Below, piece after piece: positions 1-62,819 of a DNA stretch of 64,000 bases (position 1 is its first letter; every line of letters starts with the position of its first letter). A program made the translations under genes and the position numbers. The notes under the pieces are model-generated. The model saw only the letters and a list, made by a program, of their open reading frames with translations. It ran no database searches and was not told where the DNA came from. This DNA is from an uncultured Chitinophaga sp. (GTDB taxonomy: Bacteria > Bacteroidota > Bacteroidia > Chitinophagales > LD1), in contig CAZBPG010000001.1 in NCBI GenBank assembly GCA_964493695.1, forward strand, positions 71,645 to 135,644, given 5' to 3'.

Positions 1-624
1 ATAGATTACGTGTTGCTTTCACATGCGCACCGCGACCATTGCGATAAAAGTTCGCTGCAGAAAATTTTTGCTCAGAACGGTTCTGCTGTCCTTCTTACTT
101 CGCTCAATACCGGTAAACTTGTTTCGGGTTGGGTAAGCGGGTTACATTTTCATGAGGCGGGATGGTATCAGCAGTACAATCTGCCGGAAGAGAATCTGCG
201 AATTACTTTTTTACCCACTCAACACTGGAGCAACCGGTATATGACAGACATCAATAAAACACTCTACGGAAGTTTTATGATTGAAGCCGATGGATTGAAT
301 ATCTTTTTTAATGGCGATTCGGGTTATTGTACTTACCCGAAACAAATTGCAGCGTTGTTTCCCAATATTGACATTGCTATGATTGGCGTTGGCGCGTATC
401 ATCCGCCATTGATGATGAAAGACGTTCACACGAATCCGCACGAGGCGGTTCAGATTTTTCACGATCTGAAAGCGAAGACTTTTATACCAATGCATTACGG
501 TACTTTTGATTTAGCTGATGAGCCGTTGGGAGAACCTTACAGAATTTTGAAGCAGCTGGAGGCGGAGAAAAAAATAAATGGAGAATTGAAAATGATGGAT
601 GTAGGCGAAAGGATGGCTATTTAA
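1..624 (+). CDS. MBL-fold metallo-hydrolase (beta-lactamase / NAPE-PLD-like), 5' end cut by window edge
   Basis: Frame is open to position 1. It carries the zinc motif HAHRDHCD and later His/Asp residues (QHWSNR, GDSGY, PMHYGTF) typical of the metallo-beta-lactamase fold. Confidence 0.75.
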   Translation: MDYVLLSHAHRDHCDKSSLQKIFAQNGSAVLLTSLNTGKLVSGWVSGLHFHEAGWYQQYNLPEENLRITFLPTQHWSNRYMTDINKTLYGSFMIEADGLNIFFNGDSGYCTYPKQIAALFPNIDIAMIGVGAYHPPLMMKDVHTNPHEAVQIFHDLKAKTFIPMHYGTFDLADEPLGEPYRILKQLEAEKKINGELKMMDVGERMAI

Positions 625-15732: not shown

Positions 15733-16128
15733 CTATTGTTTTATCTGCCCTTTAAAAAATGAATTACCCTGTGCGTTCAGCAGGTTCACATATTCTTTTC
15801 CGTCTTTCTGAAAGAGCACATAACCGGTGCTGTCGCCCAGGTAGTAGTTACCGGAGATAAACTCCCTTCCGTTGATGAGCCACATAATGTTACCCGACAG
15901 CGGCACGTTCACTTTCGGGGCAGTTTTGCTTTCGAAAAGATTGTTGAACAGCTTTACGTTTCTTCCGTCTAAACTCATGCTTCCGCCTTTGCCCTGATAC
16001 ATCACTATATCCATGCTTGTAGTAGAATCGCGCATGGTGAGGTAGGTTTTTGCGGGAAGCGGTTGCTGTGCTTTGCAAAAGGCAAAAAGCAAAAGGCAAA
16101 AGGCAAAAGTGAAATGCAGTTTCTTCAT
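15733..16128 (-). CDS. Small secreted protein of unknown function
   Basis: 131 aa with a signal peptide MKKLHFTFAFCLLLFAFCKA, whose h-region is encoded by the (CTTTTGC)n heptamer run. Confidence 0.5.
   Translation of the reverse strand: MKKLHFTFAFCLLLFAFCKAQQPLPAKTYLTMRDSTTSMDIVMYQGKGGSMSLDGRNVKLFNNLFESKTAPKVNVPLSGNIMWLINGREFISGNYYLGDSTGYVLFQKDGKEYVNLLNAQGNSFFKGQIKQ
16075..16109. repeat. Tandem heptamer (GCAAAAG)x5, equal to (CTTTTGC)n on the coding strand
   Basis: Read directly: gcaaaag gcaaaaa gcaaaag gcaaaag gcaaaag. It encodes FTFAFCLLLFAFC of the 15733-16128 signal peptide. Confidence 0.9.
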
Positions 16129-18527: not shown

Positions 18528-18544
18528 CAAAACAGGGAGGTTAA

Positions 18545-18860
18545 CAGACCTGTCAGCGGCTTTCCGCCTTAGCGGGAAAGGTCATACAGGTCTGCAGGGA
18601 TGATACCGGAATTCCGCTATATACCTTTCAGGTCTGGTAATGGCTGTCCGCTAACGCGGGAAGAGTCATGCAGGTCTGGAGGGATGATACCGGCATAGCG
18701 GTATAAACCCGACAGGTCAGACGGGATGATAGCGGAATCCCGCTATAAACCATACAGGTCTGGTAGCGGCTGTCCGCTAAAGCGGGGAGGCTCATACAGG
18801 TCTGCAGGGATGATAGCAGAATGCCGCTATAAGCCCGTTTGGTCTGTAAACAGGTACCTT
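18545..18860. repeat. 42-bp tandem array, about 7.5 units, with two alternating hairpin-containing unit types
   Basis: CAGGTCTG-like unit starts occur at 18545, 18587, 18629, 18671, 18713, 18755, 18797 and 18839, spaced exactly 42 nt apart. Confidence 0.9.
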
Positions 18861-18928
18861 GTTATAGAAAAGGCCATTTTCAGGATAAAAATCGGTCATT
18901 TCTATATAAAAGAGGAGATTTAAGGAGT

Positions 18929-19375
18929 TTACAAATACCTCCTTCTTCTGCGTTGTTTGGGCGGCTTGGTAAACTGCTCCTTGCGTGCGGTTTCGGCAAG
19001 GGCTATCTGGCGGGCATCGTCTGCGCGGGCAAAAAATGTTCCGCCAATCCAGTATATATCCATGCGGTTGAAGAGCGCCCAACTCAGCATCAGTGCTTCG
19101 CCCACTTTGGCCAGCTTGCTTACTTTGTTTAATGCAGTTAAACCGGCAGGCACGTGGTCACCGGTTATTACCGGCAGGCCTTCCCACGATGCTACACCGT
19201 AAAAGGCAGCTGTTGCTTCGGGCGTGGAGTGAGCATACTTAAGCCGCCCGATAGAGATGACCGCTGCCCGCCCGTGTTTGCGGGCGCGCGATAAACTTTG
19301 CAGCGATGAAAACTTACGCGTGGTGCGCAGATAATCGCCTGAGGGAAGAAGCGTGTTATGAAAGTAAATTGCCAT
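18929..19375 (-). CDS. Hypothetical protein (148 aa), basic C-terminus
   Basis: The ORF has an ATG start and is divergent from the T9SS gene. I recognised no family. Its first roughly 14 codons are duplicated at 53762-53806. Confidence 0.45.
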   Translation of the reverse strand: MAIYFHNTLLPSGDYLRTTRKFSSLQSLSRARKHGRAAVISIGRLKYAHSTPEATAAFYGVASWEGLPVITGDHVPAGLTALNKVSKLAKVGEALMLSWALFNRMDIYWIGGTFFARADDARQIALAETARKEQFTKPPKQRRRRRYL

Positions 19376-19470
19376 AATGTTTTGTTTACAGCCAAGATAA
19401 AAACAAAATAAAAAAGTGGAAGGGTGGGGCTTTTACTTACTTTTATGGAAAGGAATTTTATGAAATGGGT
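19331..19470. repeat. Duplicated divergent-promoter/leader block, copy 1
   Basis: Aligns by eye to 53762-53897, with shared strings tgtttacagccaagataaaaacaaaa and ggaagggtggggcttttacttacttttatg. Confidence 0.85.
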
Positions 19471-20335
19471 TTACCGGTGTATGCTTCCTGTTCTTCTTTT
19501 GCTTTCTGCTGAAGCAAAATCGCAGGCGTATGTTTATCATCCTTTTCCGGATTCGAATTTTACATGGAAAGGGTATACTGCATGTATTGGTGGTGGCGGT
19601 CATTGGTCATGTAATATACGAGGCGACACTCTCATCAACGGCATAACTTATAAAAACATTGGGAATATCGCTAGTATTTTGTTTATGGGTAGTATTCGTG
19701 TAGATACCAGTAAGAAAGTTTTTTTCTACAACTACAAGGAGTATGTAAACCACGAACGACTTTTGTATGATTTTTCATTTTCGGTTGGAGACACAATTTC
19801 CTCTTTGGCTACCGGAGAATTGTTGAATGTGTATCTTGTAGATACTCCAAGCTACTTTGGTATACCTAGAAGAACCTTACATTTAAGGACTGCCGGGGGA
19901 GCGGATAAAGACAAATGGATTGAAGGTGTTGGAAGTCATTTGGGTCCCTTAAGTTTATCAAAAGTTTCCCCGGGATATTGCGCTTGGTCTTGTTTATGCC
20001 AAGCGTTTGATGATTCACTGTTGGTATTTGAAAGGAATGATTACCTATCAAACTTGTGTTTCCCAACTTCTTCAATATTGGAAGTAAAGGGTTTATACAT
20101 AGTAAAGGTATATCCAAACCCCTCCACCACCTACTTCACTCTCCAGCTCTCCTCATCACCAAGCACGCCAACTCATTTTCAACTTTACGATGCACTCGGC
20201 CGACCGGTGATGCGCGAAGCGATAAATACTGAAACCACTGCCCTGCAACGCGGCAACCTGCCCACCGGTATTTACTTTTGGCAGTTAGAATCAGCAAATA
20301 AAATATTGGGGAGAGGGAAGGTGGTGATGGAGTAA
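19460..20335 (+). CDS. Secreted protein with T9SS C-terminal sorting domain (type A CTD)
   Basis: Signal peptide MKWVYRCMLPVLLLLSAEAKSQA and a C-terminal VYPNPSTTYFTLQL...GIYFWQL CTD signature. The start is moved to the Met preceding the signal peptide. Confidence 0.8.
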   Translation: MKWVYRCMLPVLLLLSAEAKSQAYVYHPFPDSNFTWKGYTACIGGGGHWSCNIRGDTLINGITYKNIGNIASILFMGSIRVDTSKKVFFYNYKEYVNHERLLYDFSFSVGDTISSLATGELLNVYLVDTPSYFGIPRRTLHLRTAGGADKDKWIEGVGSHLGPLSLSKVSPGYCAWSCLCQAFDDSLLVFERNDYLSNLCFPTSSILEVKGLYIVKVYPNPSTTYFTLQLSSSPSTPTHFQLYDALGRPVMREAINTETTALQRGNLPTGIYFWQLESANKILGRGKVVME

Positions 20336-20340
20336 ACTCC

Positions 20341-20373
20341 AACCCCGAAAGGGTTTAAAACCCTTTCGGGGTT
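20341..20373 (+). terminator. Hairpin AACCCCGAAAGGGTTT aaa ACCCTTTCGGGGTT after the first T9SS gene (dispersed repeat, putative terminator)
   Basis: 14-bp stem starting 6 nt after the stop codon with only a weak T-run. A near-identical copy lies at 37480-37514. Confidence 0.55.
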
Positions 20374-20398
20374 TGGTTATGCCTCTTATATTCGTTTC

Positions 20399-22006: not shown

Positions 22007-23533
22007 ATGCGCAAAAAAATAAAGTCAGCTCTCATCTCCGTTTATTATAAAGATAAACTCGACCTCATTGTAAAAGAACTCGCTAAGCTCGGGGTGAAAA
22101 TTTACAGCACCGGTGGCACTCAAAGTTTTATTGAAGGGCTTGGTGTAAAAGTAACTGCGGTAGAAGACCTTACTTCTTATCCATCTATTTTAGGCGGGAG
22201 AGTAAAAACCCTTCACCCGAAAGTTTTCGGAGGCATTTTAGGAAGAAGAGATAACGCCAGCGACCAAAAAGAAATGGCGCAATACGAAATTCCTGAAATT
22301 GATTTGGTGATTGTTGACCTCTATCCGTTTGAAGAAACGGTGAAAGGCGGAGGAAGTGAAGAAGATATTATTGAGAAGATTGACATTGGCGGAATTTCGC
22401 TCATCCGTGCGGCAGCAAAAAACTTCAACGACACTATTATTGTTTCTACCCGCAACGATTACGAATCGCTTTTAGAATTACTGCAAACAAAAAATGGCGA
22501 AAGCGATTTAGAAGACCGTAAAAAGTTTGCCGCCAAAGCCTTCATGAACTCTTCGCATTACGATACGCTTATCTTTAATTACTTCAATAACGAATTCAAA
22601 TTCGAAGTTTTCAAAAGGAGCGAACTGAATGCAAAGGTGCTTCGCTATGGCGAGAACCCTCACCAACGCGGAGTGTTCTACGGCAATCTTGATGAGATTT
22701 TTGAAATACTAAACGGCAAAGAACTTTCTTACAACAATCTGGTAGATGTAGATGCTTCTATAAATCTCGTAGCTGAATTTTCTGAACCGACTATTGCCAT
22801 CATCAAACACACCAACAGCTGCGGGCTTGCTTCGCGCGAAACTATTGCGGAAGCCTACAAGGCCGCTTTTGCCTGCGATACTACTTCGGCATTTGGTGGT
22901 GTAATTGCCTCTAACCGCAAAATTGATTTGGCAACCGCCAACGAAATGAATTCCCTTTTCTTCGAAGTACTCACTGCACCCGGTTATGATGATGATGCGT
23001 TGGCCGTTTTAAAAAGTAAGAAGAACAGAATTATTATCAGACAACGGACAACGGACAACGGACAACAGAAAATACAGTTCAAAAATTTGCTGAATGGAGT
23101 ATTGACACAAGATGTTGATTCTAAAGCGGAAGGCAAAAGCGAATTCAAAGTAGCTACTGCAAAAGCCCCAGCCGCTACAGAAGTTTCTGATTTAGAGTTT
23201 GCCGTAATTGCCGTTAAGCATTTAAAGAGCAACGGTATTGCGCTCGTAAAAAACAAACAACTCATCGGCAGTAACTGCGGGCAAACATCGCGTGTAGATG
23301 CTTTGCAAAATGCAGTCCGCAAAGCAAAAGAGTTCGGTTTCGATTTAACCGGTGCCGTAATGGCAAGCGATGCCTTCTTCCCTTTTCCCGATTGCGTGCA
23401 GATTTCGCACGAAGCGGGAATAACCGCCATCGCGCAACCGGGTGGCAGTATCAAAGACCAGGACTCCATAGATGCCGCCAACAAAAACAACCAGGCCATG
23501 GTAATGACTGGTGTTAGGCACTTTAAGCACTAA
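22007..23533 (+). CDS. purH: Bifunctional AICAR transformylase / IMP cyclohydrolase
   Basis: 508 aa with an MGS-like N-terminal domain (ALISVYYKDKL...STGGT) and an AICARFT domain ending VMTGVRHFKH. Confidence 0.97.
   Translation: MRKKIKSALISVYYKDKLDLIVKELAKLGVKIYSTGGTQSFIEGLGVKVTAVEDLTSYPSILGGRVKTLHPKVFGGILGRRDNASDQKEMAQYEIPEIDLVIVDLYPFEETVKGGGSEEDIIEKIDIGGISLIRAAAKNFNDTIIVSTRNDYESLLELLQTKNGESDLEDRKKFAAKAFMNSSHYDTLIFNYFNNEFKFEVFKRSELNAKVLRYGENPHQRGVFYGNLDEIFEILNGKELSYNNLVDVDASINLVAEFSEPTIAIIKHTNSCGLASRETIAEAYKAAFACDTTSAFGGVIASNRKIDLATANEMNSLFFEVLTAPGYDDDALAVLKSKKNRIIIRQRTTDNGQQKIQFKNLLNGVLTQDVDSKAEGKSEFKVATAKAPAATEVSDLEFAVIAVKHLKSNGIALVKNKQLIGSNCGQTSRVDALQNAVRKAKEFGFDLTGAVMASDAFFPFPDCVQISHEAGITAIAQPGGSIKDQDSIDAANKNNQAMVMTGVRHFKH
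23038..23072. repeat. Tandem heptamer (CGGACAA)x4-5 inside purH
   Basis: cagacaa cggacaa cggacaa cggacaa cagaaaa, translated as RQRTTDNGQQK. Confidence 0.85.
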
Positions 23534-32230: not shown

Positions 32231-33352
32231 ATGGCAGGCATCTATATTCATATCCCTTTTTGTAAGCAGGCCTGCCATTATTGCAATTTCTATTTCAGCA
32301 CTTCGCTGGGCAATAAAGACAAATTCGTTCAGGCATTGCTGAAAGAAATTGGGTTGAGCAAAGATTACTTAGCGGGCGAAAAAATAGAAACCCTCTATTT
32401 GGGTGGAGGAACACCTTCGCAGTTAAGCATTCAAGATTTAAGGTTGATTACAGATAAACTTCACCTGTATTACGATTTAAGTCAACTGAAAGAATTTACA
32501 ATTGAAACCAATCCTGATGATTTGAAAGAGGAGAAAGGCATTAAAGGAATAGGAACGTTAGGAGTGGACCGTTTTTCCATCGGCATTCAATCTTTTTTTG
32601 ATGAAGATTTAAAATACATGAACCGCGCGCATAATTCCGATGAAGCACTTTCCTCGGTTAAAAGAGTGCAGGATGCCGGTTTTGAAAACATCACGATTGA
32701 TTTAATTTATGGAACTCCCACCATGAATGATGAGAAATGGAAGCAGAACCTTGCCACAGCCTTTTCATTGAACGTTCCGCATATTTCTTCTTACGCTTTA
32801 ACCGTTGAGTCAAAAACATCTTTAGAGAAGAAAATTGCAAAAGGAGAATCGAAACAGGTTGACGAAGAACAATCTGCAAGGCAATTCAAGATGCTGATGA
32901 ACGAAATGCGCATACATGGTTTTGAGCAGTATGAGATTTCAAATTTTGCGCGGAATGGGAAACATGCTGTCCATAATTCCAACTACTGGTTTGGTAAAAA
33001 GTATCTGGGGCTTGGCCCTTCGGCACATTCCTTTAACGGAGTTTCAAGGCGATGGAATGTTTCAAATAATCTGAACTATATCAACAGCATCAACGAAGGC
33101 AAAATTCTTTTTGAGGAAGAGGTGTTGACTGAAGCACAAAAAGTGAATGAGAAAATTATGACTTCACTTCGTACGCAATGGGGCTTAGATATTGCGGAAT
33201 GTGGAACGCGGAACGCGGAATTAATTCAAGAGGGCTCAAAAGAAATTGACCCCACACATTATACGCTTGAAAGCGGAGTTCTTAAATTGACTGACGAAGG
33301 AAAATTGTTTGCCGATTCTATTGCTGCTGCGCTTTTTGTCGAAGAGCAGTAA
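32231..33352 (+). CDS. hemW: Radical SAM heme chaperone HemW (oxygen-independent coproporphyrinogen oxidase-like)
   Basis: 373 aa with CxxxCxxC (CKQACHYC) at the N-terminus and a HemN_C-like tail. Confidence 0.9.
   Translation: MAGIYIHIPFCKQACHYCNFYFSTSLGNKDKFVQALLKEIGLSKDYLAGEKIETLYLGGGTPSQLSIQDLRLITDKLHLYYDLSQLKEFTIETNPDDLKEEKGIKGIGTLGVDRFSIGIQSFFDEDLKYMNRAHNSDEALSSVKRVQDAGFENITIDLIYGTPTMNDEKWKQNLATAFSLNVPHISSYALTVESKTSLEKKIAKGESKQVDEEQSARQFKMLMNEMRIHGFEQYEISNFARNGKHAVHNSNYWFGKKYLGLGPSAHSFNGVSRRWNVSNNLNYINSINEGKILFEEEVLTEAQKVNEKIMTSLRTQWGLDIAECGTRNAELIQEGSKEIDPTHYTLESGVLKLTDEGKLFADSIAAALFVEEQ
33191..33226. repeat. Tandem heptamer (GCGGAAY/GTGGAAC)x4 inside hemW
   Basis: attgcggaat gtggaac gcggaac gcggaat taat, translated as IAECGTRNAELI. 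Confidence 0.75.
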
Positions 33353-33982
33353 TTACTTCCATTCAAATGTTTTCAGCATTTGTTTTACATCGGCTTTTAC
33401 ATAATCAAGCACCGGTGCCATACTGTCGGCATTGGGTGAACTGTAAAAATAAAGTGCTCCGCGAATAAAATGACGATTGCTATCGGTTAGGAAAAACTGA
33501 ACATTACTGGCTGCGTCTCCGCCCAAATCGTAAAGTATCCCGCCAACACCATGTGCGTTATCAATTTTAATCTCGTCAATGTAGTTTGCTTTTTTGGTGT
33601 GCTTAAAAGCCATCTTGTGTGCGTCTTCCACTAAGTGCTCCAGCCTCATCGTATCATTAATGTCCTTGTAAGTAAGATTTACCACTCCGTTAAGCGATGG
33701 GAAGTAAACATTCAGCCAGCATTGGTCGCTTCTCAGTTTGTTTCCAAAATAGGTGGTATCGCGTGATACTTCCGTGTAAACGGGTTTCTCAAATTTAAAC
33801 GGACATTCCTTCGGGTCGTACAATTCATATTTTCTCTCCGGAAAAATTACCCGCGGATATGCCTTTTGTTTGGGAGTGTAATCACCATGACAAGAAGGAA
33901 GGATAACAGATAATAGACAACAGACAACAGACAAAATCCATTTCTGATTTCTGATTTCTGATTTCTGATTTCTAACTCTCAT
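33353..33982 (-). CDS. gldD: Gliding motility lipoprotein GldD
   Basis: 209 aa with a lipobox (LPSC). It shows conserved GldD blocks (YPRV.FPE..Y, LTYK, DAHKM.F.H..KA, FFLTDS..HF.RGALYFY..PN.DS..P) and lies immediately downstream of gldE. Confidence 0.8.
   Translation of the reverse strand: MRVRNQKSEIRNQKWILSVVCCLLSVILPSCHGDYTPKQKAYPRVIFPERKYELYDPKECPFKFEKPVYTEVSRDTTYFGNKLRSDQCWLNVYFPSLNGVVNLTYKDINDTMRLEHLVEDAHKMAFKHTKKANYIDEIKIDNAHGVGGILYDLGGDAASNVQFFLTDSNRHFIRGALYFYSSPNADSMAPVLDYVKADVKQMLKTFEWK
33902..33974. repeat. Two-armed heptamer element at the gldE/gldD junction
   Basis: On the plus strand, (ACAGAYA)x4 at 33902-33935 and (ATTTCTG)x5 at 33940-33974. The arms are about 5/7 complementary per unit. 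Confidence 0.9.
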
Positions 33983-35400: not shown

Positions 35401-35838
35401 CTAAAATGGTAAATCATCATCTGCAGCCGATGTGGAAGCAGGAGACTCTTCATTGGCAGAAGGACCTGTATTGGTAGATGAGTAATTGCCGCTTCCGCTA
35501 TCGCTTCCTTCCTTGTTGCCCAGCATTCTGAAATTATCAACGATAATTTCAGTAGTTCTTCTTTTGTTGCCGTCTTTATCATCGTATTCGCGGGTGCGGA
35601 TTTTCCCTTCTATCCAAATCTGCATGCCCTTTTTCAGATTTTTCTCGGCACGTTCAGCAGCGAATTTGTTGTTGACTTTAATGTTGTGCCAATCAGTAAT
35701 GTCTTTCCAGTTGCCGTCTTTGTCCTTGTAGCTTTCGTTCGTGGCAAGTGAGAATTCGGCAATTGCTCCACCGTTATCGAAATGTTTTATAACCGGGTCC
35801 TTGCCCAGTCTGCCTATTAAAAATACTTTGTTTACCAT
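35401..35838 (-). CDS. ssb: Single-stranded DNA-binding protein
   Basis: 145 aa with an OB fold (MVNKVFLIGRLGKDP), a Gly/Ser-rich tail and an acidic tip DDDLPF. Confidence 0.95.
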   Translation of the reverse strand: MVNKVFLIGRLGKDPVIKHFDNGGAIAEFSLATNESYKDKDGNWKDITDWHNIKVNNKFAAERAEKNLKKGMQIWIEGKIRTREYDDKDGNKRRTTEIIVDNFRMLGNKEGSDSGSGNYSSTNTGPSANEESPASTSAADDDLPF

Positions 35839-35958
35839 AGCTGTAAATTTTGTTAGTGATGTAATTTGGGATGTCTAAAATAAGGACTTTTGTTCTAAAC
35901 CAAATCAATTCATTGAATATTTTTGAGATTAAAGGATTGATTTGGTTCACGAAGTCTG

Positions 35959-37017
35959 CTAAATTTTCAAACCGACACTGAGTAAATACAAGTACAAGGT
36001 TTTGGGAAAGGCGTATTGAGAAATCAATTTTAGTTTTACTTTCTGCGTATTTGCCAATGAAAACGATTTAAAATCCTTTAGCTCAACTTCAATAAACCTA
36101 AAATGAATTTTGCGGTGCGAAAGCATTTGAGATATTTCCCTTGAATGCGATTGGATAGAAAAACGTTTTGTGCCGAGAAGCTTTGCCACCGCCTCAGCAA
36201 AACCCTTCTTCAAAGGTTTTGTTGTTTCAATCATCGGCAGTTCGTAGAGGTTTTTCCAGATGTCCTTGCCCGTTCGCTTTCGAATCAGAATTTCTTTATC
36301 GTTTTTTATTAAGAGGTAATTAAAATACCGGTTGGTGATTTTGGTTCGCTTCCCCCTGTAAGGAAGCTGCTCAATCAGCTCATGATTTTTTGCCACACAA
36401 ATTTTTCTGAACGGACATTCCTCACACTTCGGGTTTTTAGGTAGGCAAACTACTCCGCCAAAATCCATGATAGCCTGATTATAAAGAGCGGGATTCTTTT
36501 CATCAATTAAATCTTGGGCCAGTTGCGCAAATCTCTTTTTGCCTTCGGTGTTGTCAAAAGCTGTTTCAATTCCGAAAACACGTGCCAGTACACGGATAAC
36601 ATTGCCATCTACCACCGCTTTGTTTTCACCAAAGGCGAATGATGCAATAGCCGCAGCGGTGTAATCACCTACGCCCTTCAGCTTTTTTAGTTCATCGAAC
36701 GTTTCCGGAAACTTCCCTTTCCGGTTATCCTGAATGTTTTTGGCGGTTTCGTGCAAGTTACGTGCACGCGAATAGTAGCCCAGGCCCTGCCACAGTTTCA
36801 TCACATCATCTTCTTTGGCTTTAGCCAAATGCTGTATCGTGGGATACTTCTGTTTAAAGCGAAGAAAATACGGCAGCCCCTGCTCTACCCGCGTTTGCTG
36901 CAGAATAATTTCACTCAGCCAGATGTAATAAGGATTCTTTTCTCCCTTCCACGGCATGTGCCGGGTGTTTTCTTCTTTATGCCATTTTAGTAAAACCGAA
37001 GCGAATTTGTTACTCAT
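35959..37017 (-). CDS. mutY: A/G-specific adenine DNA glycosylase
   Basis: HhH-GPD domain, a 4Fe-4S Cys cluster (C..PKNPKCEECPFRKIC) and a NUDIX-like C-terminal domain. The start is moved to the Met at MSNKF. Confidence 0.9.
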   Translation of the reverse strand: MSNKFASVLLKWHKEENTRHMPWKGEKNPYYIWLSEIILQQTRVEQGLPYFLRFKQKYPTIQHLAKAKEDDVMKLWQGLGYYSRARNLHETAKNIQDNRKGKFPETFDELKKLKGVGDYTAAAIASFAFGENKAVVDGNVIRVLARVFGIETAFDNTEGKKRFAQLAQDLIDEKNPALYNQAIMDFGGVVCLPKNPKCEECPFRKICVAKNHELIEQLPYRGKRTKITNRYFNYLLIKNDKEILIRKRTGKDIWKNLYELPMIETTKPLKKGFAEAVAKLLGTKRFSIQSHSREISQMLSHRKIHFRFIEVELKDFKSFSLANTQKVKLKLISQYAFPKTLYLYLLSVGLKI

Positions 37018-37139
37018 TATATATATGACAAAGAAGAAAGTTTTTGTCAATTCAAACCATCAATGAATTGTCAGCGCCAACTTTCCCCCGGCCTTGAACT
37101 ATTGGTTCAAACCAAAAGAACAACGTTAAAAGTTAAATC

Positions 37140-37690
37140 GAATGCAATTCACAACCATTTTGGCGAAATCCTCCACCCATTTCGCCCCTATTTTCTTAAA
37201 AAAGGCAATATTTTTTTACAAACAGCCATCATATTTTTATATATATTCAAAAATTATTTACAAATAGCGAATATAATTTCTTATATAATCAATGTATTTT
37301 TTAGTATAGGCAATGTATTTTTACAATAAGCAATAATTAATTTACATTAATCAATAGTATTTCTTCACACAGTCGAAGTATTTTTTCATATAGGCATAAT
37401 TTTTTCGCGTTGGTTCAAAAATATTTCCATTAATCATTACTTTCACACTAAATTAAATCCATAAAACTATGCTTTTCCGAAACCCCGAAAGGGTTGTAAA
37501 CCCTTTCAGGGTTTGCCTACCGCGCAATAATTAAACTCGGAAACGCAAACCCCATTCATGGAACCGGAACCCCCGCGCATGGAGTAGCAAACGCCACACC
37601 TGGAACCGCGAACGCCCCGCACAGTATCGAAAATCACAAACGCAGAACCGGAAACTCCGTACGTAGAAACCCAAACCATACTCCAAAAAA
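37140..37690. repeat. About 26 degenerate tandem units with a strict 21-bp phase (AT-rich T-tract half at 37203-37433, GC-richer GGAACCG-type half at 37539-37685)
   Basis: Unit starts were read at 37203, 224, 245, 266, 287, 308, 329, 350, 371, 392 and 413, and at 37539, 560, 581, 602, 623, 644 and 665. 37539 equals 37203 + 16x21. Confidence 0.8.
37480..37514. repeat. Second copy of the ACCCCGAAAGGGTT hairpin repeat
   Basis: aaaccccgaaagggttgtaaaccctttcagggttt, about 30 of 33 nt identical to 20341-20373. Confidence 0.8.
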
Positions 37691-37751
37691 TTCTAAGTTT
37701 GCGGCCCTTGTATTCAAATCCAAAACCACACTTCTAAAATCTAAAATCAGA

Positions 37752-38804
37752 ATGATTAACGTTCCTCTCCTCAAACAAATCTGCGAAACCCCCGGGGTTC
37801 CCGGCCACGAACAAAAAGTGCGCGAACTTATTCAACGCGAACTCAAAAATATTGCTGATGACATCTATACCGATAATATGGGTAACCTGATAGCGGTAAA
37901 AAAAGGAAAGAGCAGCACCAAAAAAGTAATGGCCGCTGCGCACATGGACGAAATCGGCTTTATCGTTCATCATATTGACGAAAACGGTTTTCTCCGCTTT
38001 CATCCCCTTGGCGGCTTCGACCCTAAAACTTTAACGGCACAGCGCGTAGTAGTTCACGGAAAAAAAGATGTGGTTGGTGTAATGGGCACAAAACCTATTC
38101 ACTTAATGACAGCAGAAGAGCGTGGAAAGCCGCTTCACCTCACCGATTATTTTATTGACCTCGGCATGAGTCGCAAAGAAGTAGTGAAGATTGTGGAGGT
38201 GGGAAATGTAGTAACCCGCGAGCGCGAATTGATTGAAATGGGCGATTGCGTGAACTGCAAAAGTATCGACAACCGGGTAGCGGTTTTTGTTCTGATTGAA
38301 ACACTCCGCGAACTCAAAGGAAAAAATATCCCTTACGACTTCTACGGCATCTTTACCGTGCAGGAAGAAGTGGGTATCCGTGGCGCACAGGTTGCCGCCC
38401 ACCACATTGGTGCCGAATTCAGTTTTTGTATTGATACAACAATAGCTTTTGATACACCCGGTGCAAAACCCGAAGAAATGGTTACTAAACTGGGGGATGG
38501 TGTAGCGATAAAAATTATGGATTCGTCCGCCATCTGCGATTACCGCATGGTGAAGTTTATGAAAGAGCTGGCCGACAAAAACAAAATTAAATGGCAACCG
38601 GAGTTGCTCCCTGCCGGTGGAACCGACACAGCGGGCATGCAGCGCATGGCACCGAACGGAACTATTGCCGGTGCGGTATCTATTCCAACCCGCCACATTC
38701 ATTCCGTAATTGAAATGGCAAACAAAAAAGACATTAAAGGCAACATTGATTTGCTGAAACTTTGCTTGAGCAATCTGGATAAATACGATTGGAGCTTTAA
38801 GTAA
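37752..38804 (+). CDS. M42-family glutamyl aminopeptidase / endoglucanase-like peptidase
   Basis: 350 aa. It has the motifs ETPGVPGHE, AHMDEIGF, DNRVA, VQEEVGIRGA. Confidence 0.9.
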   Translation: MINVPLLKQICETPGVPGHEQKVRELIQRELKNIADDIYTDNMGNLIAVKKGKSSTKKVMAAAHMDEIGFIVHHIDENGFLRFHPLGGFDPKTLTAQRVVVHGKKDVVGVMGTKPIHLMTAEERGKPLHLTDYFIDLGMSRKEVVKIVEVGNVVTRERELIEMGDCVNCKSIDNRVAVFVLIETLRELKGKNIPYDFYGIFTVQEEVGIRGAQVAAHHIGAEFSFCIDTTIAFDTPGAKPEEMVTKLGDGVAIKIMDSSAICDYRMVKFMKELADKNKIKWQPELLPAGGTDTAGMQRMAPNGTIAGAVSIPTRHIHSVIEMANKKDIKGNIDLLKLCLSNLDKYDWSFK

Positions 38805-38862: not shown

Positions 38863-39186
38863 ATGAACTTGATTGAACTACATAGAAAGGAAATAGAGGC
38901 GCTGTGTGAAAAGCACAAAGTAGATTCATTGGATTTAGTGGGTTCTTTTGCAAAGGGAACATCTAACAGCGAAAGTGATGTTGACTTTCTGGTAACGTTT
39001 GGCGATGTTGATTTGTATCAATATGCCGACAATTATTTTGACTTTATTACTTCTATGGAAACTCTTTTCAATAGAAAAGTTGATTTGATTTCCGAAAAAG
39101 CGATTGACAACCCGTATTTATTGAAATCATTCAACCGTAACCGCGTCAAAATCTATGAGCGAAGAAATCCTCGTTTGGCTGCATGA
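38863..39186 (+). CDS. Nucleotidyltransferase-domain antitoxin (MntA-like)
   Basis: 107 aa with the minimal NTase motif GSFAKGT..SESDVDFLV. It overlaps the downstream HepT-like gene. Confidence 0.85.
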   Translation: MNLIELHRKEIEALCEKHKVDSLDLVGSFAKGTSNSESDVDFLVTFGDVDLYQYADNYFDFITSMETLFNRKVDLISEKAIDNPYLLKSFNRNRVKIYERRNPRLAA

Positions 39187-39502
39187 CATTCGCAAACAGG
39201 TTTTGCAGATTGATGAGTTTTATGCCACCACACAAAAATCTTTCGAAGAATTTCAGAAAAACACCATGCTCCGCAAAGCCATTGAGCGGAATCTGGAAAT
39301 CGCAGCAGAAGCGCTAAACAGAATTTTAGAAAAGGAACCGGATTTCCCTATTTCCAACGCAAGAAAAATCATCGGCTTCCGTAACCGGTTAGCACACGAA
39401 TATGACCGGCTGGATGACGAAACTGTTTACAGTGTTTCCGTTAAGTATCTTCCGGAACTCCTGAAAGAAGTTTCTGCAATTCTTGATAAAAATAAACCAT
39501 GA
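39155..39502 (+). CDS. HepT-like (DUF86) HEPN toxin
   Basis: 115 aa with the Rx4HxY HEPN motif (RNRLAHEY). It overlaps the MNT gene by 32 nt. Confidence 0.85.
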   Translation: MSEEILVWLHDIRKQVLQIDEFYATTQKSFEEFQKNTMLRKAIERNLEIAAEALNRILEKEPDFPISNARKIIGFRNRLAHEYDRLDDETVYSVSVKYLPELLKEVSAILDKNKP

Positions 39503-39505
39503 ATC

Positions 39506-39736
39506 ATGTGGACGGAAAAGGATAATTCACTCCAACGCACTTTCACCTTCAAAGATTTCTCTGAAGCATTTGCCTTTATGACGCGCGTGGCACTGATAGC
39601 TGAAAAGATGGACCATCATCCTTACTGGGTGAATGTGTGGAACCGGGTAGAAATAACGCTCAACACGCACAGTGCCGGAAACACCGTAACAGAAAAAGAC
39701 AGAAAGCTGGCTGCCGAAATTGATAAACTCGTATAG
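39506..39736 (+). CDS. 4a-hydroxytetrahydrobiopterin dehydratase (pterin-4-alpha-carbinolamine dehydratase)
   Basis: 76 aa. The pattern F.F.DF..AF.FM..VA..AEKM.HHP matches the PCD/DCoH signature. Confidence 0.85.
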
Positions 39737-46614: not shown

Positions 46615-46780
46615 GCGGAAAGATTTTTTCTTACAGCATACAGATTCCCAATGCGGGAATGTGATTACCTTAAAACAGATTGCGAATAGAGGAAGGCGAA
46701 TTGCGCTTGGGGGATGATTTATTTGGAATAGGACAAGGCGAAAGAGAGTTGCACTGAGACTCAACCTTATTTGCGCCATC

Positions 46781-47010
46781 TATAACATGGTTTACTAAAA
46801 TATAGCGTTTTGGCTAATTAATTAAACCATTTAATTAAATGTTCAACTATTTAAGTTATACTATAAAATATTGTGATTAATATTTAAACAATATAAATTA
46901 ATCCGTTTTATACATTACTTTATTATACCAACAATTTTATTTAAAGTTTTAATAGTTGTAATTATTCGTTTAATTATTTATTTTAGTCGTTAAAACCAAT
47001 TTATTAATTT
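46781..47010. other. Extremely AT-rich 230-bp tract upstream of the 159-aa orphan ORF
   Basis: Runs of ttaattaa/atttaa-type sequence with very few G or C, visibly unlike the flanking DNA. Confidence 0.8.
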
Positions 47011-47490
47011 ATGAGGAACAGAGTTGATGCCACGCTTAGTCCTGCCGATATTCAGAACCTTAAAGATGCTTTTGAAACCATTAAGAACAAAATTGGATTC
47101 CGTCAAACCCTGATTGATAAAGAAAGGCGCAAGGGCGGTTGGTATTTAAGTTCCAATGCTTTGCTTTTGGCTGAGCTTGCCCTGAGCCAGGCGAAACACG
47201 CACCGGCTAATTTTCCGAAAATAGACGCGGCAGAGTTTGAGCGCGATGTAAAGCTGATTAAGGAGCTGGCCAATCTTGAATCGCAGGTGCTTAATCTTCA
47301 ATATATGCTGAAAGACACCCGCAGGATGCTTACGGTAGATACCACTGAGCAGTGCTCGTATGTGTATGCCATGCTTAAAATATTTTACGAGCAGGGCATA
47401 CCGGGCGGTGAGGCTTTTCCTACGCTTAAAGAACGTATGCCGCGCTCCGGCAAAAAAGCAACCCCTAAAAAAACCAATACGCTTACTTAA
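47011..47490 (+). CDS. Hypothetical protein (159 aa) downstream of an extremely AT-rich tract
   Basis: Clean ATG ORF, helical, with a basic tail. It resembles an uncharacterised small-protein family I believe is common in Bacteroidota. It overlaps the convergent TauE gene by 8 nt. Confidence 0.5.
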   Translation: MRNRVDATLSPADIQNLKDAFETIKNKIGFRQTLIDKERRKGGWYLSSNALLLAELALSQAKHAPANFPKIDAAEFERDVKLIKELANLESQVLNLQYMLKDTRRMLTVDTTEQCSYVYAMLKIFYEQGIPGGEAFPTLKERMPRSGKKATPKKTNTLT

Positions 47491-53082: not shown

Positions 53083-53685
53083 GTGAAAGCCCAAAGCTCA
53101 AAGCCCAAAGCCCAAATAAAACCCGTTTCGCGTTTTTTATTTTGCTTTTGCCTTTTGCCTTTTGCGCTTTGCCTTTTACTCTCCTCCTGCAAAAACTCTC
53201 TTGAAGAAGCCAGGCTGATTGTATCGCGCGCTAACGTGAATATTGAAAAGGGCAAAGATGTAGAAATCAATTATTCGGATAATGGGGTGGTGCGCATTAA
53301 AGCATCGGGCCCTACGGCTACCCGGTTTAATTCCGAAAAACCTTACCTCGAATTTTCGGACGGCATAAAGATTCTCTTTTACAATGCTGCTCACCAAATA
53401 GAAAGCACGCTCACCGCAAAACATGCTACTGCGGTAGAAAACAGCCATTCCATGACGGCCCGCGACAGTGTGGTGGTGGTAAACGACAAAGGCGATGTAT
53501 TGAACACGGATGAGTTGATTTGGGATGAGGAGAAAAAAATAATTTACAGCAACTCGTTTGTAAAAATCTCTACTGACGATGAAATTATTTACGGTAACGG
53601 CATGATTGCCAACGAAAATTTTTCCGACTACACCATTAAGCACATTACCGGAAAGATTAAAGTGAAAACAAGTGAGCTGGAGTAG
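53083..53685 (+). CDS. lptC: LptC-like LPS export periplasmic protein (lipoprotein form)
   Basis: 200 aa with a lipobox (LSSC) and OstA/LptC-like beta-jellyroll repeats (LEFSDGIKILFYN...DELIWDEEKKIIYSNSFVKI). Confidence 0.65.
   Translation: MKAQSSKPKAQIKPVSRFLFCFCLLPFALCLLLSSCKNSLEEARLIVSRANVNIEKGKDVEINYSDNGVVRIKASGPTATRFNSEKPYLEFSDGIKILFYNAAHQIESTLTAKHATAVENSHSMTARDSVVVVNDKGDVLNTDELIWDEEKKIIYSNSFVKISTDDEIIYGNGMIANENFSDYTIKHITGKIKVKTSELE
53086..53177. repeat. Two-armed heptamer element at the OMP / lptC-like junction
   Basis: (AAAGCCC)x4 at 53086-53120 and (TTTTGCC)x5 at 53140-53177. Confidence 0.9.
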
Positions 53686-55001: not shown

Positions 55002-55811
55002 TTATTGTTCGCCCCCGTTGGCGTAAGCTACCATTTTCTCTTTACCGTTTGCAGAGACTAAAGTTCCCTGCCCGTAACGAACATTGTTGGTCCATGTGCC
55101 GGTGTATTTTTCACCGTCTGCCCATACAAAGCTTCCAAAGCCGTGCATTTGCCCGTTCAGAAATTCGCCTTCGTACCGGTCACCGTTATCCCAGGTATAG
55201 GTTCCTGTACCTGTGCGGGCATTGTTTTTAAACTCGCCCACATACCGGTCGCCACTTGGCATGGTCAATTTGCCAAAACCTTCTTTTTTATCAGCTATAA
55301 AATAGCCGTCATAAACGTTTCCGTTTTTATAATAGTAAACTCCTTTGCCTGTTTTTCTTCCATTTACAAAGCTACCTTCGTAAAGTTCCCCTGCAGCATA
55401 GTGCAGTGTACCGGTACCGGTAACCACCCCGCTTACAAACTCTCCCACATATTTGTTACCGTTAGCATACTGATATGTTCCCCAACCGTTCATTTCATCG
55501 TTTACAAACTGACCGATGTACCGGTCTCCGTTTGCAAACTCATAGTTGCCGCGACCCTGACGTTTGTCATCTCTCCAATCACCGTAATAGGAAGAGCCGT
55601 CTTTAAAGATTGCCCTGCCCACACCATTGCGCATGTCGTTTGACCACATGCCGTCATACAAAGAACCATCGTAGTAAATAGCCTGACCCTGTCCGTGTTT
55701 TTTTCCGTTTTTGGTTTCTCCGGTGTATTTGCCATTAATGTATTCTGCCGACTGCGCTTGAATGCAGCAGAAAAAAGAAACCAGAAAGAGGGAGAGTAAA
55801 AAGGCTTTCAT
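55002..55811 (-). CDS. Secreted MORN-repeat protein
   Basis: 269 aa with a signal peptide and about 10 tandem 23-aa MORN units (Y.G....G...G.G......G..Y.G.W). Confidence 0.85.
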   Translation of the reverse strand: MKAFLLSLFLVSFFCCIQAQSAEYINGKYTGETKNGKKHGQGQAIYYDGSLYDGMWSNDMRNGVGRAIFKDGSSYYGDWRDDKRQGRGNYEFANGDRYIGQFVNDEMNGWGTYQYANGNKYVGEFVSGVVTGTGTLHYAAGELYEGSFVNGRKTGKGVYYYKNGNVYDGYFIADKKEGFGKLTMPSGDRYVGEFKNNARTGTGTYTWDNGDRYEGEFLNGQMHGFGSFVWADGEKYTGTWTNNVRYGQGTLVSANGKEKMVAYANGGEQ

Positions 55812-61530: not shown

Positions 61531-62819
61531 GAAAATTAAAAGTTAAAAGTCAAAAGCTAAAAGTTAATGGCCTGATACTGCTGTTATCTTGTGTCTTGTG
61601 TCTTGTGTCCGTAATCTCTCTCGCTCAAACTTCTGCCAAGTTAAAGAAAGAGCAACTGCAGCAGCAGATGAAAAAACTGCAGGATGAGATTAAGACCATC
61701 GAAGCCGCTATCAAGAGCAACAGCGCGAAAAAACAAAAGAGCATGAGCGAGATTCTCTCACTGCAGGCTAAAATAAAATCGCGCGAAAACCTGATTGGCA
61801 ACATCAACAACCAGATTGGTGATTTAGATGAAAACATTGGCGAAACACAGGTGGCCATTGCAAAGAAAGCTGACGAGGTGGAGCAAATGAAAACAGAGTA
61901 TGCCGAAATGCTCCGCAAAAGCTACCGGAACATTGCCCTGCAAAATCAGGTGGTGTTTCTGCTTTCTTCCAATTCGTTTTACGATGCCATACGCAGATAC
62001 AATTACCTGCTGAAAGTTGCCGAGTACAGGAGAGGTCAGGCAAAAACGATTCAAAAAACTATTGGCGAACTGGAAGTAAAAAAAGAAGACCTGCTGGAGA
62101 ACAAACACGAGAAAGAAGATTTACTGGTAAAACAAACCGCGCAGAAAAAGGAACTGGAAAACGAACGAAAGCAAAAAGATGCTGCGGTGGCTTTGTTGCT
62201 GGAGAAAGAAAAAAAACTGCGCAGGTCGCAACAGGAAAAAAACAAAGCGGTGGCACAACTCAACAACCGCATTCAGACAATTATTGAAGAAGAGATTCGG
62301 CTGGCACGCGAAGCGGCTAAGAGAAATGCCGGTAGCACCAAAGACGTAGCTGTAAAAAAAGGAAGCAACGAAACCATGCCGCTTACACCGGCAGAGCAAG
62401 CACTGTCGAAAGATTTTTCGAACAACCAGGGCAAGTTGCCGTGGCCGGTGGTGCGGGGGCATATTGTTTCGCGTTTCGGCAAGCATGAGCATCCGGTGCT
62501 GAAAGGAGTGGTGATTGAAAACAACGGAGTGGATATTAAAACCGAAGCCGGTTCGGAGGCGCGCGCCCTGTTTGGTGGAACGGTGGCGAGTGTGTTTTAT
62601 TTACCCACCACACAAAATTGTGTGATTGTAAAACACGGTGAGTTTTTTACCGTGTATTCCAACATCGAAAATGTAGCGGTAAAGACCGGTCAGGCTTTAA
62701 CTACTAAACAGTCGCTCGGGAAACTGCACACCGATAAAAACGAAGACCTCACTAAGGTGCACCTCGAAATCTGGAAAGGAAAAGATAAGATGGACCCGCA
62801 GGGTTGGCTGGCGAATTGA
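61527..62819 (+). CDS. M23-family peptidase with long N-terminal coiled coil (EnvC-like murein hydrolase activator)
   Basis: 430 aa with about 250 aa of coiled coil followed by a LytM/M23 domain (GVDIK...VKHGEFFTVYSNI...HLEIW). Confidence 0.85.
   Translation: MRKLKVKSQKLKVNGLILLLSCVLCLVSVISLAQTSAKLKKEQLQQQMKKLQDEIKTIEAAIKSNSAKKQKSMSEILSLQAKIKSRENLIGNINNQIGDLDENIGETQVAIAKKADEVEQMKTEYAEMLRKSYRNIALQNQVVFLLSSNSFYDAIRRYNYLLKVAEYRRGQAKTIQKTIGELEVKKEDLLENKHEKEDLLVKQTAQKKELENERKQKDAAVALLLEKEKKLRRSQQEKNKAVAQLNNRIQTIIEEEIRLAREAAKRNAGSTKDVAVKKGSNETMPLTPAEQALSKDFSNNQGKLPWPVVRGHIVSRFGKHEHPVLKGVVIENNGVDIKTEAGSEARALFGGTVASVFYLPTTQNCVIVKHGEFFTVYSNIENVAVKTGQALTTKQSLGKLHTDKNEDLTKVHLEIWKGKDKMDPQGWLAN
61532..61610. 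repeat. Two-armed heptamer element at the DUF4292 / M23 peptidase junction
   Basis: (TTAAAAG/TCAAAAG/CTAAAAG)x4-5 at 61532-61567 and (TCTTGTG)x3 at 61587-61610. Confidence 0.9.

Follow-up and report, generated by a model that had tools for sequence, protein, structure and literature searches.

What builds and preserves a strict 21-bp period in the non-coding DNA between two bacterial genes, and does such a period serve their promoters? The question is raised by a 64-kb stretch of DNA (64,000 nucleotides, referred to here as the window), in which the DNA at 37140–37690, lying between mutY and a gene for an M42 family metallopeptidase, was found on inspection to repeat in steps of 21 bp. A preliminary description saw a single array of about 26 units, and offered three possibilities: a curved-DNA or nucleoid-protein region controlling two divergent promoters, an array of binding sites for some factor, or a satellite expanded by slippage of a 7-nt unit (21 = 3 × 7). 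The present study examined the structure of the region, its counterparts in related genomes, and its rate of change, and weighed these readings against one another.

The Locus and Its Host

The source of the window is an uncultured freshwater bacterium of the Chitinophagales (Bacteroidota). By genome scan, the closest relatives of its M42 peptidase are encoded by lake MAGs, at 94–95% amino-acid identity. Exact-protein look-ups of M42 and mutY, including a shorter, 100%-identical mutY call (P0135), returned no conspecific genome, and the best match in a metagenome scan for the window's own species was 88%.

Pfam searches agreed with the names first given to the flanking genes. The left flank is mutY, encoding an A/G-specific adenine glycosylase (35959–37017, minus strand, ATG at 37017) with HhH-GPD, NUDIX_4, HHH and EndIII_4Fe-2S matches, and the right flank is the M42 family metallopeptidase gene (37752–38804, plus strand; Peptidase_M42, E = 1.7e-89). 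They are divergent, with a gap of 734 bp between 37017 and 37752, and the neighbourhood also includes ssb and a toxin-antitoxin pair. The strand on which genes lie switches at this locus, from minus at 28.4–37.0 kb to plus at 37.7–44.5 kb.

Two Tandem Arrays and an Aperiodic Spacer

Taken as a whole, 37140–37690 shows a lag-21 signal of z = 10.2, the next-best lags being 42 and 63. Autocorrelation and Fourier analysis found the 21-bp signal to be significant in each half: lag-21 identity is 0.56 both in 37203–37433 (z = 7.4) and in 37539–37685 (z = 7.3), compared with shuffles, and the unit starts listed earlier do fall into a 21-nt register when the sequence is written out in 21-nt rows. The idea of one continuous array did not hold. 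A sliding comparison of lags 18–24 gave a continuous lag-21 signal only at about 37184–37394 and about 37520–37670, with 37394–37520 aperiodic, so that the region contains not some 26 units in one array but about 11 and 7 units in two, with an aperiodic stretch between them. It had also been proposed that the phase survives across the intervening hairpin, the two sets of units being 336 bp (16 × 21) apart, which is a matter of arithmetic only. The consensus of the first set, AGcCAAaATaTTTTTaCATAt, and that of the second, gGAAcCGcAAACcCCacaCat, are non-homologous in any register and unrelated in every rotation (PWM rotation test, P = 0.66), and they therefore define no common phase. Within each array the units abut head-to-tail and keep the 21-bp register exactly, for 11 units in the first and 7 in the second; being contiguous and without spacers, they are not a CRISPR array.

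The array distal to the M42 gene (37203–37433) consists of 11 degenerate units, has a GC content of 21%, and shows a mean pairwise identity between units of 0.55. Its Fourier spectrum has peaks at period 21 (z = 16) and at the 10.5 harmonic (z = 10), while period 7 is weak (z = 3.7). The description of a run of 5–7 T residues about every 21 bp was correct as to position, every such run lying at offset 8–10 of its unit, but only six of the 11 units have one. The other five have no unbroken T tract: their T-rich stretches are interrupted, or an A5 run is present, and those with the A5 run, namely the final unit and the unit at 37245, look inverted. A 23-nt inverted repeat, 78% complementary, brackets the array (37201–37223 and 37409–37431). 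The sequence TATTTTTG occurs on the minus strand at 37423–37416, within the array.

The promoter-proximal array (37539–37685) is rich in A and C, and its seven 21-bp units are 57% identical to one another. It can be read as 21 degenerate heptamers of the form (C/G)(G/A)AACC(C/G), which share a loose consensus only, with A3, A4 and C5 common to 14–16 of the 21. Here the dominant Fourier period is 7 (z = 17.4), compared with z = 4.6 for period 21, which is a super-period. Lag identity is 0.56 at 21 and 0.59 at 42, with a higher-order alternation of unit types every 42 bp.

Between the arrays lies a 105-bp aperiodic spacer (37434–37538) with no lag-21 signal. The palindromic hairpin reported in it is indeed present at 37480–37514 (35 nt, AAACCCCGAAAGGGTT-GTA-AACCCTTTCAGGGTTT), an inverted repeat with 16-nt arms that are 94% complementary and a predicted RNA fold of −22.9 kcal/mol (z = −3.0). 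A second copy is found at 20340–20375, 4 nt past the stop codon of the gene at 19445–20335. The two copies have nothing in common beyond the 35-nt hairpin, their flanks being unrelated, and the hairpin is absent at 178 loci of relatives. It is a genome-specific element, REP- or terminator-like, and separate from the repeat units.

The M42 Promoter

Scans for sigma-70 promoters and terminators are uninformative for Bacteroidota, and the motif TAnnTTTG, the −7 promoter consensus of this phylum, was used in their place. The region has a single perfect plus-strand match, TAAGTTTG at 37694–37701, and this lies within a conserved plus-strand block, AAAAATTCTAAGTTTGCGGC (37686–37705). On this basis M42 transcription is predicted to start some 7–10 nt beyond 37701. 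Most close relatives, among them species with a short upstream gap, keep the block ahead of M42, in the form AAAAATTCTAAGTTTG with its TAnnTTTG. Since relatives with only 41–204 bp upstream keep it, the predicted M42 promoter should be self-sufficient without an array. Judged from these sequences, both arrays are situated further upstream than this conserved promoter, which as predicted can do without them. Further downstream, in the presumed 5′ UTR of M42, Tandem Repeats Finder detected a short plus-strand heptamer repeat (TCTAAAA × 2.3, 37733–37748).

Occurrence of Arrays among Relatives

The pairing of mutY with M42 was seen in none of 80 genome relatives. Their mutY genes face an HU gene across a gap of about 100 bp, and homology with this upstream DNA stops about 40–50 bp upstream of the mutY ATG in the window. 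The gene upstream of M42 changes in almost every species, and the gap that precedes M42 is 41–204 bp at L001–3, L006, L008–12, L166 and L171. Arrays of 21/42 bp were found upstream of M42 in four other species (L007, L004, and the sister pair L005 and L169), with differing units, and in a single-gene tree the array-bearing species are scattered among array-less ones. The proximal array of the window is orthologous, unit for unit and in register, to positions 789–893 of L007 (P < 0.0005). No array in relatives was significantly homologous to the AT-rich array (P = 0.33 for the distal array of L007), which, among the arrays compared, is found in this genome alone.

The preliminary description had named, as an outcome that would refute its proposal, short intergenic regions in relatives and an array that is one of many in its own genome. 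This is largely what was found, given the gaps of 41–204 bp for M42 and about 100 bp for mutY. The idea of many identical satellites fitted in part: the locus is one of three with 21/42-bp arrays in the 64 kb, but their units are not identical.

Rate and Mode of Change

In the proximal array, the window and L007 are 64% identical when aligned in register and 45–55% identical at an offset of one or two units, which compares with 55% identity at four-fold degenerate sites of their M42 genes. For L005 and L169, identity is 75% in the array, about 72% (71.5%) at four-fold sites, 95% in the promoter block, and 89% in the distal, non-array DNA beside the other gene. Purifying selection on the sequence of array units is not seen in either comparison (64% against 55%, and 75% against 71.5%). 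On this sequence evidence, orthologous arrays drift at an approximately neutral rate while the adjoining regulatory DNA is conserved.

The array of L169 is longer than that of L005 by exactly one 42-bp unit. Although their array is analogous to that of the window and not the same one, the difference shows that phase can be kept through length changes of whole units. The population represented by L007 and five further assemblies was 100% identical across the six over the 1.7–5 kb compared, from which it follows only that the array is not hypervariable on that time-scale.

Tandem Repeats with Periods in Multiples of Seven

Fourteen of the 16 non-redundant tandem repeats detected in the window by Tandem Repeats Finder have a period divisible by 7 (7, 14, 21 and 126), against an expectation of 1/7 (binomial test, P = 1.3e-10). 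The same bias is present at 28 loci of close relatives (18 of 31 repeats, P = 2e-8), while at loci of more distant Bacteroidota the count is 15 of 61. A sample of 1.19 Mb of Bacteroidota loci contains 65 non-coding-like repeats, of which 34 have such a period; the sampling covers the 64-kb window and the loci around M42 and mutY genes. The larger periods observed are 21, 42, 63, 84 and 126, with 28 seen once, and 35, 49 and 56 absent.

The window has three long, true intergenic regions, and each is periodic at lags of 21/42 bp (z = 7.5–9), with unrelated units. One lies between convergent genes (3′-3′; 18528–18928), one between the divergent genes considered here (37018–37751), and one between genes in tandem (46615–47010). 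Since arrays occur in convergent, divergent and tandem contexts, they show no specificity for promoters or for the mutY-M42 locus.

Tandem repeats with a 7-nt unit have been documented before. Heptanucleotide repeats are the most abundant class of long simple sequence repeats (SSRs) in many prokaryotes, and some Bacteroidetes have intergenic heptamer arrays where the corresponding regions of close relatives are shorter and repeat-free (PMC4679880). Bacteroidota also have a high density of short tandem repeats (PMC12699852). When the literature on Chitinophagales and Bacteroidota was searched for arrays of 21 bp or of heptamers, it yielded only general work on heptamer repeats and the BrickBuilt element, which is discussed below. 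As far as the long heptanucleotide SSRs are summarised in PMC4679880 (citing Mrazek et al. 2007, and covering cyanobacterial STRR-type repeats and Bacteroidetes arrays), the arrays of the window resemble them in being spacer-less, intergenic direct repeats with a 7-nt quantum. In the same summary (PMC4679880) the units are locus-specific, the regions in relatives are often shorter and repeat-free, and slippage is the presumed origin, all of which is similar to what is seen here. They differ in that the heptamers of the window are strongly decayed, and in the weak period-7 signal of the AT-rich array (z = 3.7). They also differ from microsatellite SSRs of 3–6 copies in being organised into 21/42-bp higher-order units that extend over 150–230 bp, which places them among the minisatellites.

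Origin of the Arrays

The two arrays are probably independent, old and degenerate minisatellites, derived from heptamers in a lineage whose tandem repeats are quantised in steps of 7 bp, and the most likely view is that they represent ordinary satellite DNA, not a means of regulation. Of the three possibilities first offered, slippage of a 7-nt unit is the one that gains support, from the heptamer sub-periodicity, the preponderance of multiples of 7 (14 of 16), the unit-sized indel, and the near-neutral divergence. Heptamer-derived tandem repeats of prokaryotes are a kind already known, and the mutY-M42 arrays are a further case.

Both arrays could have been built by tandem duplication, through either replication slippage or unequal recombination. 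In the sequence of events that best fits the comparisons, a heptamer microsatellite, (C/G)(G/A)AACC(C/G), would have expanded upstream of the M42 promoter, and 21-bp and then 42-bp higher-order units would have arisen from it before the window and L007 lineages split. A rearrangement would then have set mutY beside the proximal array. The AT-rich array lies in DNA that lacks a counterpart beside mutY in relatives, and so would have arisen or expanded in the new junction DNA, at or after this rearrangement. Substitutions would since have decayed both arrays, with gain and loss of whole units preserving the register; the exact register would persist because changes in length come in whole units while substitutions are approximately neutral. 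Under this scheme the phased T tracts, and the moderate bend predicted for them, may be a physical consequence of a period that equals two helical turns, and not a selected design. The arrays may well have no function.

Several observations sit less comfortably with a minisatellite origin. An array stands upstream of M42 in five species in spite of their different upstream neighbours, which in compact genomes may mean that arrays are kept for a reason. Where the upstream gene is divergently transcribed, three of the four cases have an array. Each of the larger periods is a multiple of 21, which slippage of a 7-nt unit does not by itself explain and which hints at a constraint on helical phase. 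By prediction, the curvature of the AT-rich array exceeds that of 96–99% of window segments. It is also somewhat unexpected that units only 55% identical should hold their register over 10–11 units with no internal indels. Ascertainment bias weakens arguments from the survival of register, arrays being recognised because their register survived.

Alternative Explanations

Such observations would be accommodated if the region were a structural promoter element, either DNA curved by phased T tracts or a platform for a nucleoid protein such as HU, which modulates or insulates the divergent promoters and in which the period is selected and not the sequence. We consider this unlikely, but it is the likeliest of the alternatives. 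Selection on period alone is compatible with neutral-rate change in sequence; arrays are found upstream of M42 in five species even though their units turn over; and the higher periods fall on multiples of 21, not on multiples of 7 in general. The AT-rich array itself has T5–7 runs at a constant offset in six of its 11 units and Fourier peaks at 21 and 10.5. Curved DNA upstream of promoters is characterised by A/T tracts of at least 4–5 nt in phase with the helix, and the T5–7 tracts likewise share a face of the helix upstream of a promoter, with a predicted curvature above background. The resemblance is incomplete, since the AT-rich array has one tract per two turns, in six of 11 units, and lies 260–490 bp upstream of the −7 box.

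Curvature was estimated with three dinucleotide wedge models, the predictions of which are model-dependent. The end-to-end ratio predicted for the AT-rich array is 0.76–0.85, within the top 1–4% of window segments in all three, but 2–14% of shuffles of the same composition reach the same ratio. The array is thus predicted to be more bent than most of the window, while the term 'strongly curved', as first used, is supported to a moderate degree. Two of the three models also predict curved arrays at L004 and L005. By contrast, the closest orthologue, the L007 array, has a predicted end-to-end ratio of 0.986–0.991 and would be straighter than 94–98% of shuffles, and the window's own proximal array is not predicted to be curved. 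A control region based on curved DNA is physically plausible for the AT-rich half, but the curvature, as modelled, is not conserved in the orthologue. Any 21-bp period accumulates the bend of its unit, so that the curvature of the AT-rich array looks like a by-product. Further difficulties for a structural element are that most relatives have the same conserved promoter with just 41–204 bp upstream, and that a similar array occupies a convergent, 3′-3′ region that is promoter-less.

A more specific version, and one that we would place somewhat lower still, holds that arrays grow in quanta of 21 bp, the smallest multiple of 7 nt that makes whole helical turns, and that selection on phase turns them into structural scaffolds, curved or coated by a protein such as HU, at promoters such as that of M42. 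If true, it would explain the periods of 21, 42, 63, 84 and 126 without 35, 49 and 56, the retention in five species, and the indel-free register. It is the periods in multiples of 21 and the persistence in five species that keep a structural, phase-selected role alive, at a low but appreciable probability.

It is improbable that the units are tandem operators, or iteron-like sites, at which some sequence-specific protein controls M42, mutY or both. Plasmid iterons are spaced so as to place their sites on one face of the helix, and a 21-bp spacing would do the same here. The arrays are similar to iterons, and to centromere arrays of the sopC/parC type, in being non-coding direct repeats with a spacing of about 21–22 or 42–43 bp (two or four turns), and they differ in having no initiator or partition gene nearby and no DnaA boxes. 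Within units, conservation is position-specific, some columns reaching 1.6–2.0 bits, and the unit of L005 and L169 contains a perfect 16-bp palindrome, whereas the units of the window have no dyad symmetry and no regulator gene is adjacent. Iterons are constrained by the protein that binds them, but here the unit sequence is not conserved between orthologues, which diverge at about the rate of four-fold sites, and the unit consensus is wholly different between species with a near-identical M42 protein and promoter block. Matches to the unit motifs elsewhere in the 64 kb do not exceed chance. The suggestion of a binding-site array thus found neither sequence constraint nor dispersed copies in the window to sustain it.

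An origin of the AT-rich array in a small mobile element, carried by it or left as its remnant and with the hairpin included, is more doubtful again. BrickBuilt, a MITE of Porphyromonas gingivalis and the closest Bacteroidota element so far described, sets a precedent for intergenic minisatellites borne by such elements in Bacteroidota (PMC4596501), and the arrays of the window are like it in being intergenic, spacer-less, near promoters and composed of units of about 20 bp. BrickBuilt, however, repeats a single 23-nt unit at 19 loci and possesses leader and tail subunits as well as ends formed by inverted repeats (PMC4596501), whereas each array of the window has its own 21-bp unit, no dispersed copies and no convincing terminal repeats. 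The 23-nt, 78% inverted repeat that surrounds the AT-rich array could be taken for element ends, but it corresponds to an inverted unit copy in AT-rich DNA, and outside the array the window has no copy of the unit sequence. The hairpin is dispersed, with two copies in the window, but these share the 35-nt hairpin only and target-site duplications are not seen.

Other functions, namely a replication origin with iterons, a heptad-repeat peptide or N-terminal extension of M42, or a structured ncRNA, are largely refuted and have very little left to recommend them, in spite of the strand switch at the locus (minus at 28.4–37.0 kb, plus at 37.7–44.5 kb), a proximal array that has no stop codon in the frame of the M42 ATG, and a 57-aa minus-strand ORF that ends inside the hairpin. 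The earlier statement that there is no DnaA box stands, as TTATCCACA has no match with up to one mismatch in 37018–37751; near matches in the 64 kb number six against 15 expected, none of them in the region, and no initiator gene is adjacent. Cumulative GC skew has no V-shaped turn at the locus and is uninformative for an origin. The in-frame stretch upstream of M42 lacks ATG, GTG and TTG, contains the −7 box, and in L007 is out of frame with a stop. No small ORF of the region has a Pfam match above cut-off, and gene callers called nothing on the orthologous L007 array. For structured ncRNA, Rfam searches gave no match, whether at the gathering threshold or with E ≤ 1, and folding z-scores range from −1.1 to +1.4.

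Conclusions

The mutY-M42 arrays are a caution that an overwhelming periodicity before a promoter can be a mutational by-product and not a regulatory device. In this uncultured freshwater lineage of Chitinophagales, the few long intergenic regions appear to be filled with multiple-of-7 satellites in 21/42-bp units, located at synteny breakpoints and evolving neutrally by gain and loss of whole units. Should periods of 21n prove to be favoured over other multiples of 7 across the genome, these bacteria would offer a clean system in which to study whether helical phasing constrains the evolution of satellite DNA.

Gene Order Around mutY and the M42 Peptidase Gene

The ancestral gene order places RNase E/G, TPR and HU genes divergently from mutY, ssb, gldE (CNNM) and gldD (relatives' loci L172 and L175, 2572-6577; window 35401-37017), and in the window the HU side of this arrangement has been replaced. 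The junction upstream of the M42 peptidase gene is a synteny breakpoint, and the neighbouring gene differs in nearly every species. Downstream of M42, a toxin-antitoxin pair consisting of MNT (nucleotidyltransferase) and HepT (RNase) genes (window 38863-39502) lies before the pterin-4a-carbinolamine dehydratase gene (39506-39736), and since every close relative that was compared has the two flanking genes just 3-90 bp apart, MNT and HepT seem to have been inserted here recently.

The sister species represented by loci L005 and L169 carry arrays of a 42-bp unit upstream of M42 (L005 3578-3850; L169 2020-2340), the unit including a perfect 16-bp palindrome, ATATTTTATAAAATAT, as well as GGTACC and CCGCGG palindromes. 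In length, the arrays of the two species are exactly one unit apart; the L169 array also has a 1-nt indel in its interior. The non-repeat DNA adjoining the carboxyltransferase gene (L005 3267-3570; L169 1720-2020) is 89% identical between the two, the figure for four-fold degenerate sites being 72%. This stretch probably represents a leader, a promoter or a small RNA under constraint.

Palindromes and Periodic Sequences of the Window

A GH3 glycosidase gene and ORF 18929-19375 converge on an intergenic region that contains a 42/126-bp tandem array (18542-18850). The array resembles a BIME, that is, an array of REP palindromes, because the short palindromes CGGAATTCCG and CCGCTAACGCGG occur within every unit. 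Predicted curvature reaches its window-wide maximum just beside this array, at about 18880-18900. An AT-rich array of 21/42-bp periodicity (46790-47010) immediately precedes ORF 47011-47490, which is without a Pfam match, and the intergenic region holding it has a lag-21 z (21-bp self-identity against shuffles) of 7.5.

A palindromic hairpin of 35 nt, AACCCCGAAAGGGTT-nnn-AACCCTTTCrGGGTT, is present in two copies (37480-37514 and 20340-20375), one of them starting 4 nt past a stop codon, and the sequences surrounding the two are unrelated. No exact copy was found in the 178 relatives' loci searched. The hairpin is specific to this genome and has the look of a REP element or a terminator.

Short heptamer microsatellites number about 17 across the window, mostly at gene boundaries, each with 3-5 copies of a different heptamer (e.g., 16075-16109, 23040-23066, 33905-33973, 53086-53177 and 61532-61609). 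That at 33194-33220, of GCGGAAC, belongs to the same heptamer family as the unit of the proximal array, which lies between mutY and M42. Periodicity is also found in coding sequence. A repeat at 55029-55644, inside ORF 55002-55811 (reverse strand), has a period of 69 nt (23 aa), which is not a multiple of 7. In L007, the nearest relative with an orthologous array, a 131-aa gene upstream of the array (96-500, reverse strand) encodes heptad repeats such as EKDKVIA/ELNAKVA and its coding sequence is 21-nt periodic; the multiple-of-7 tendency therefore exists within coding DNA too.
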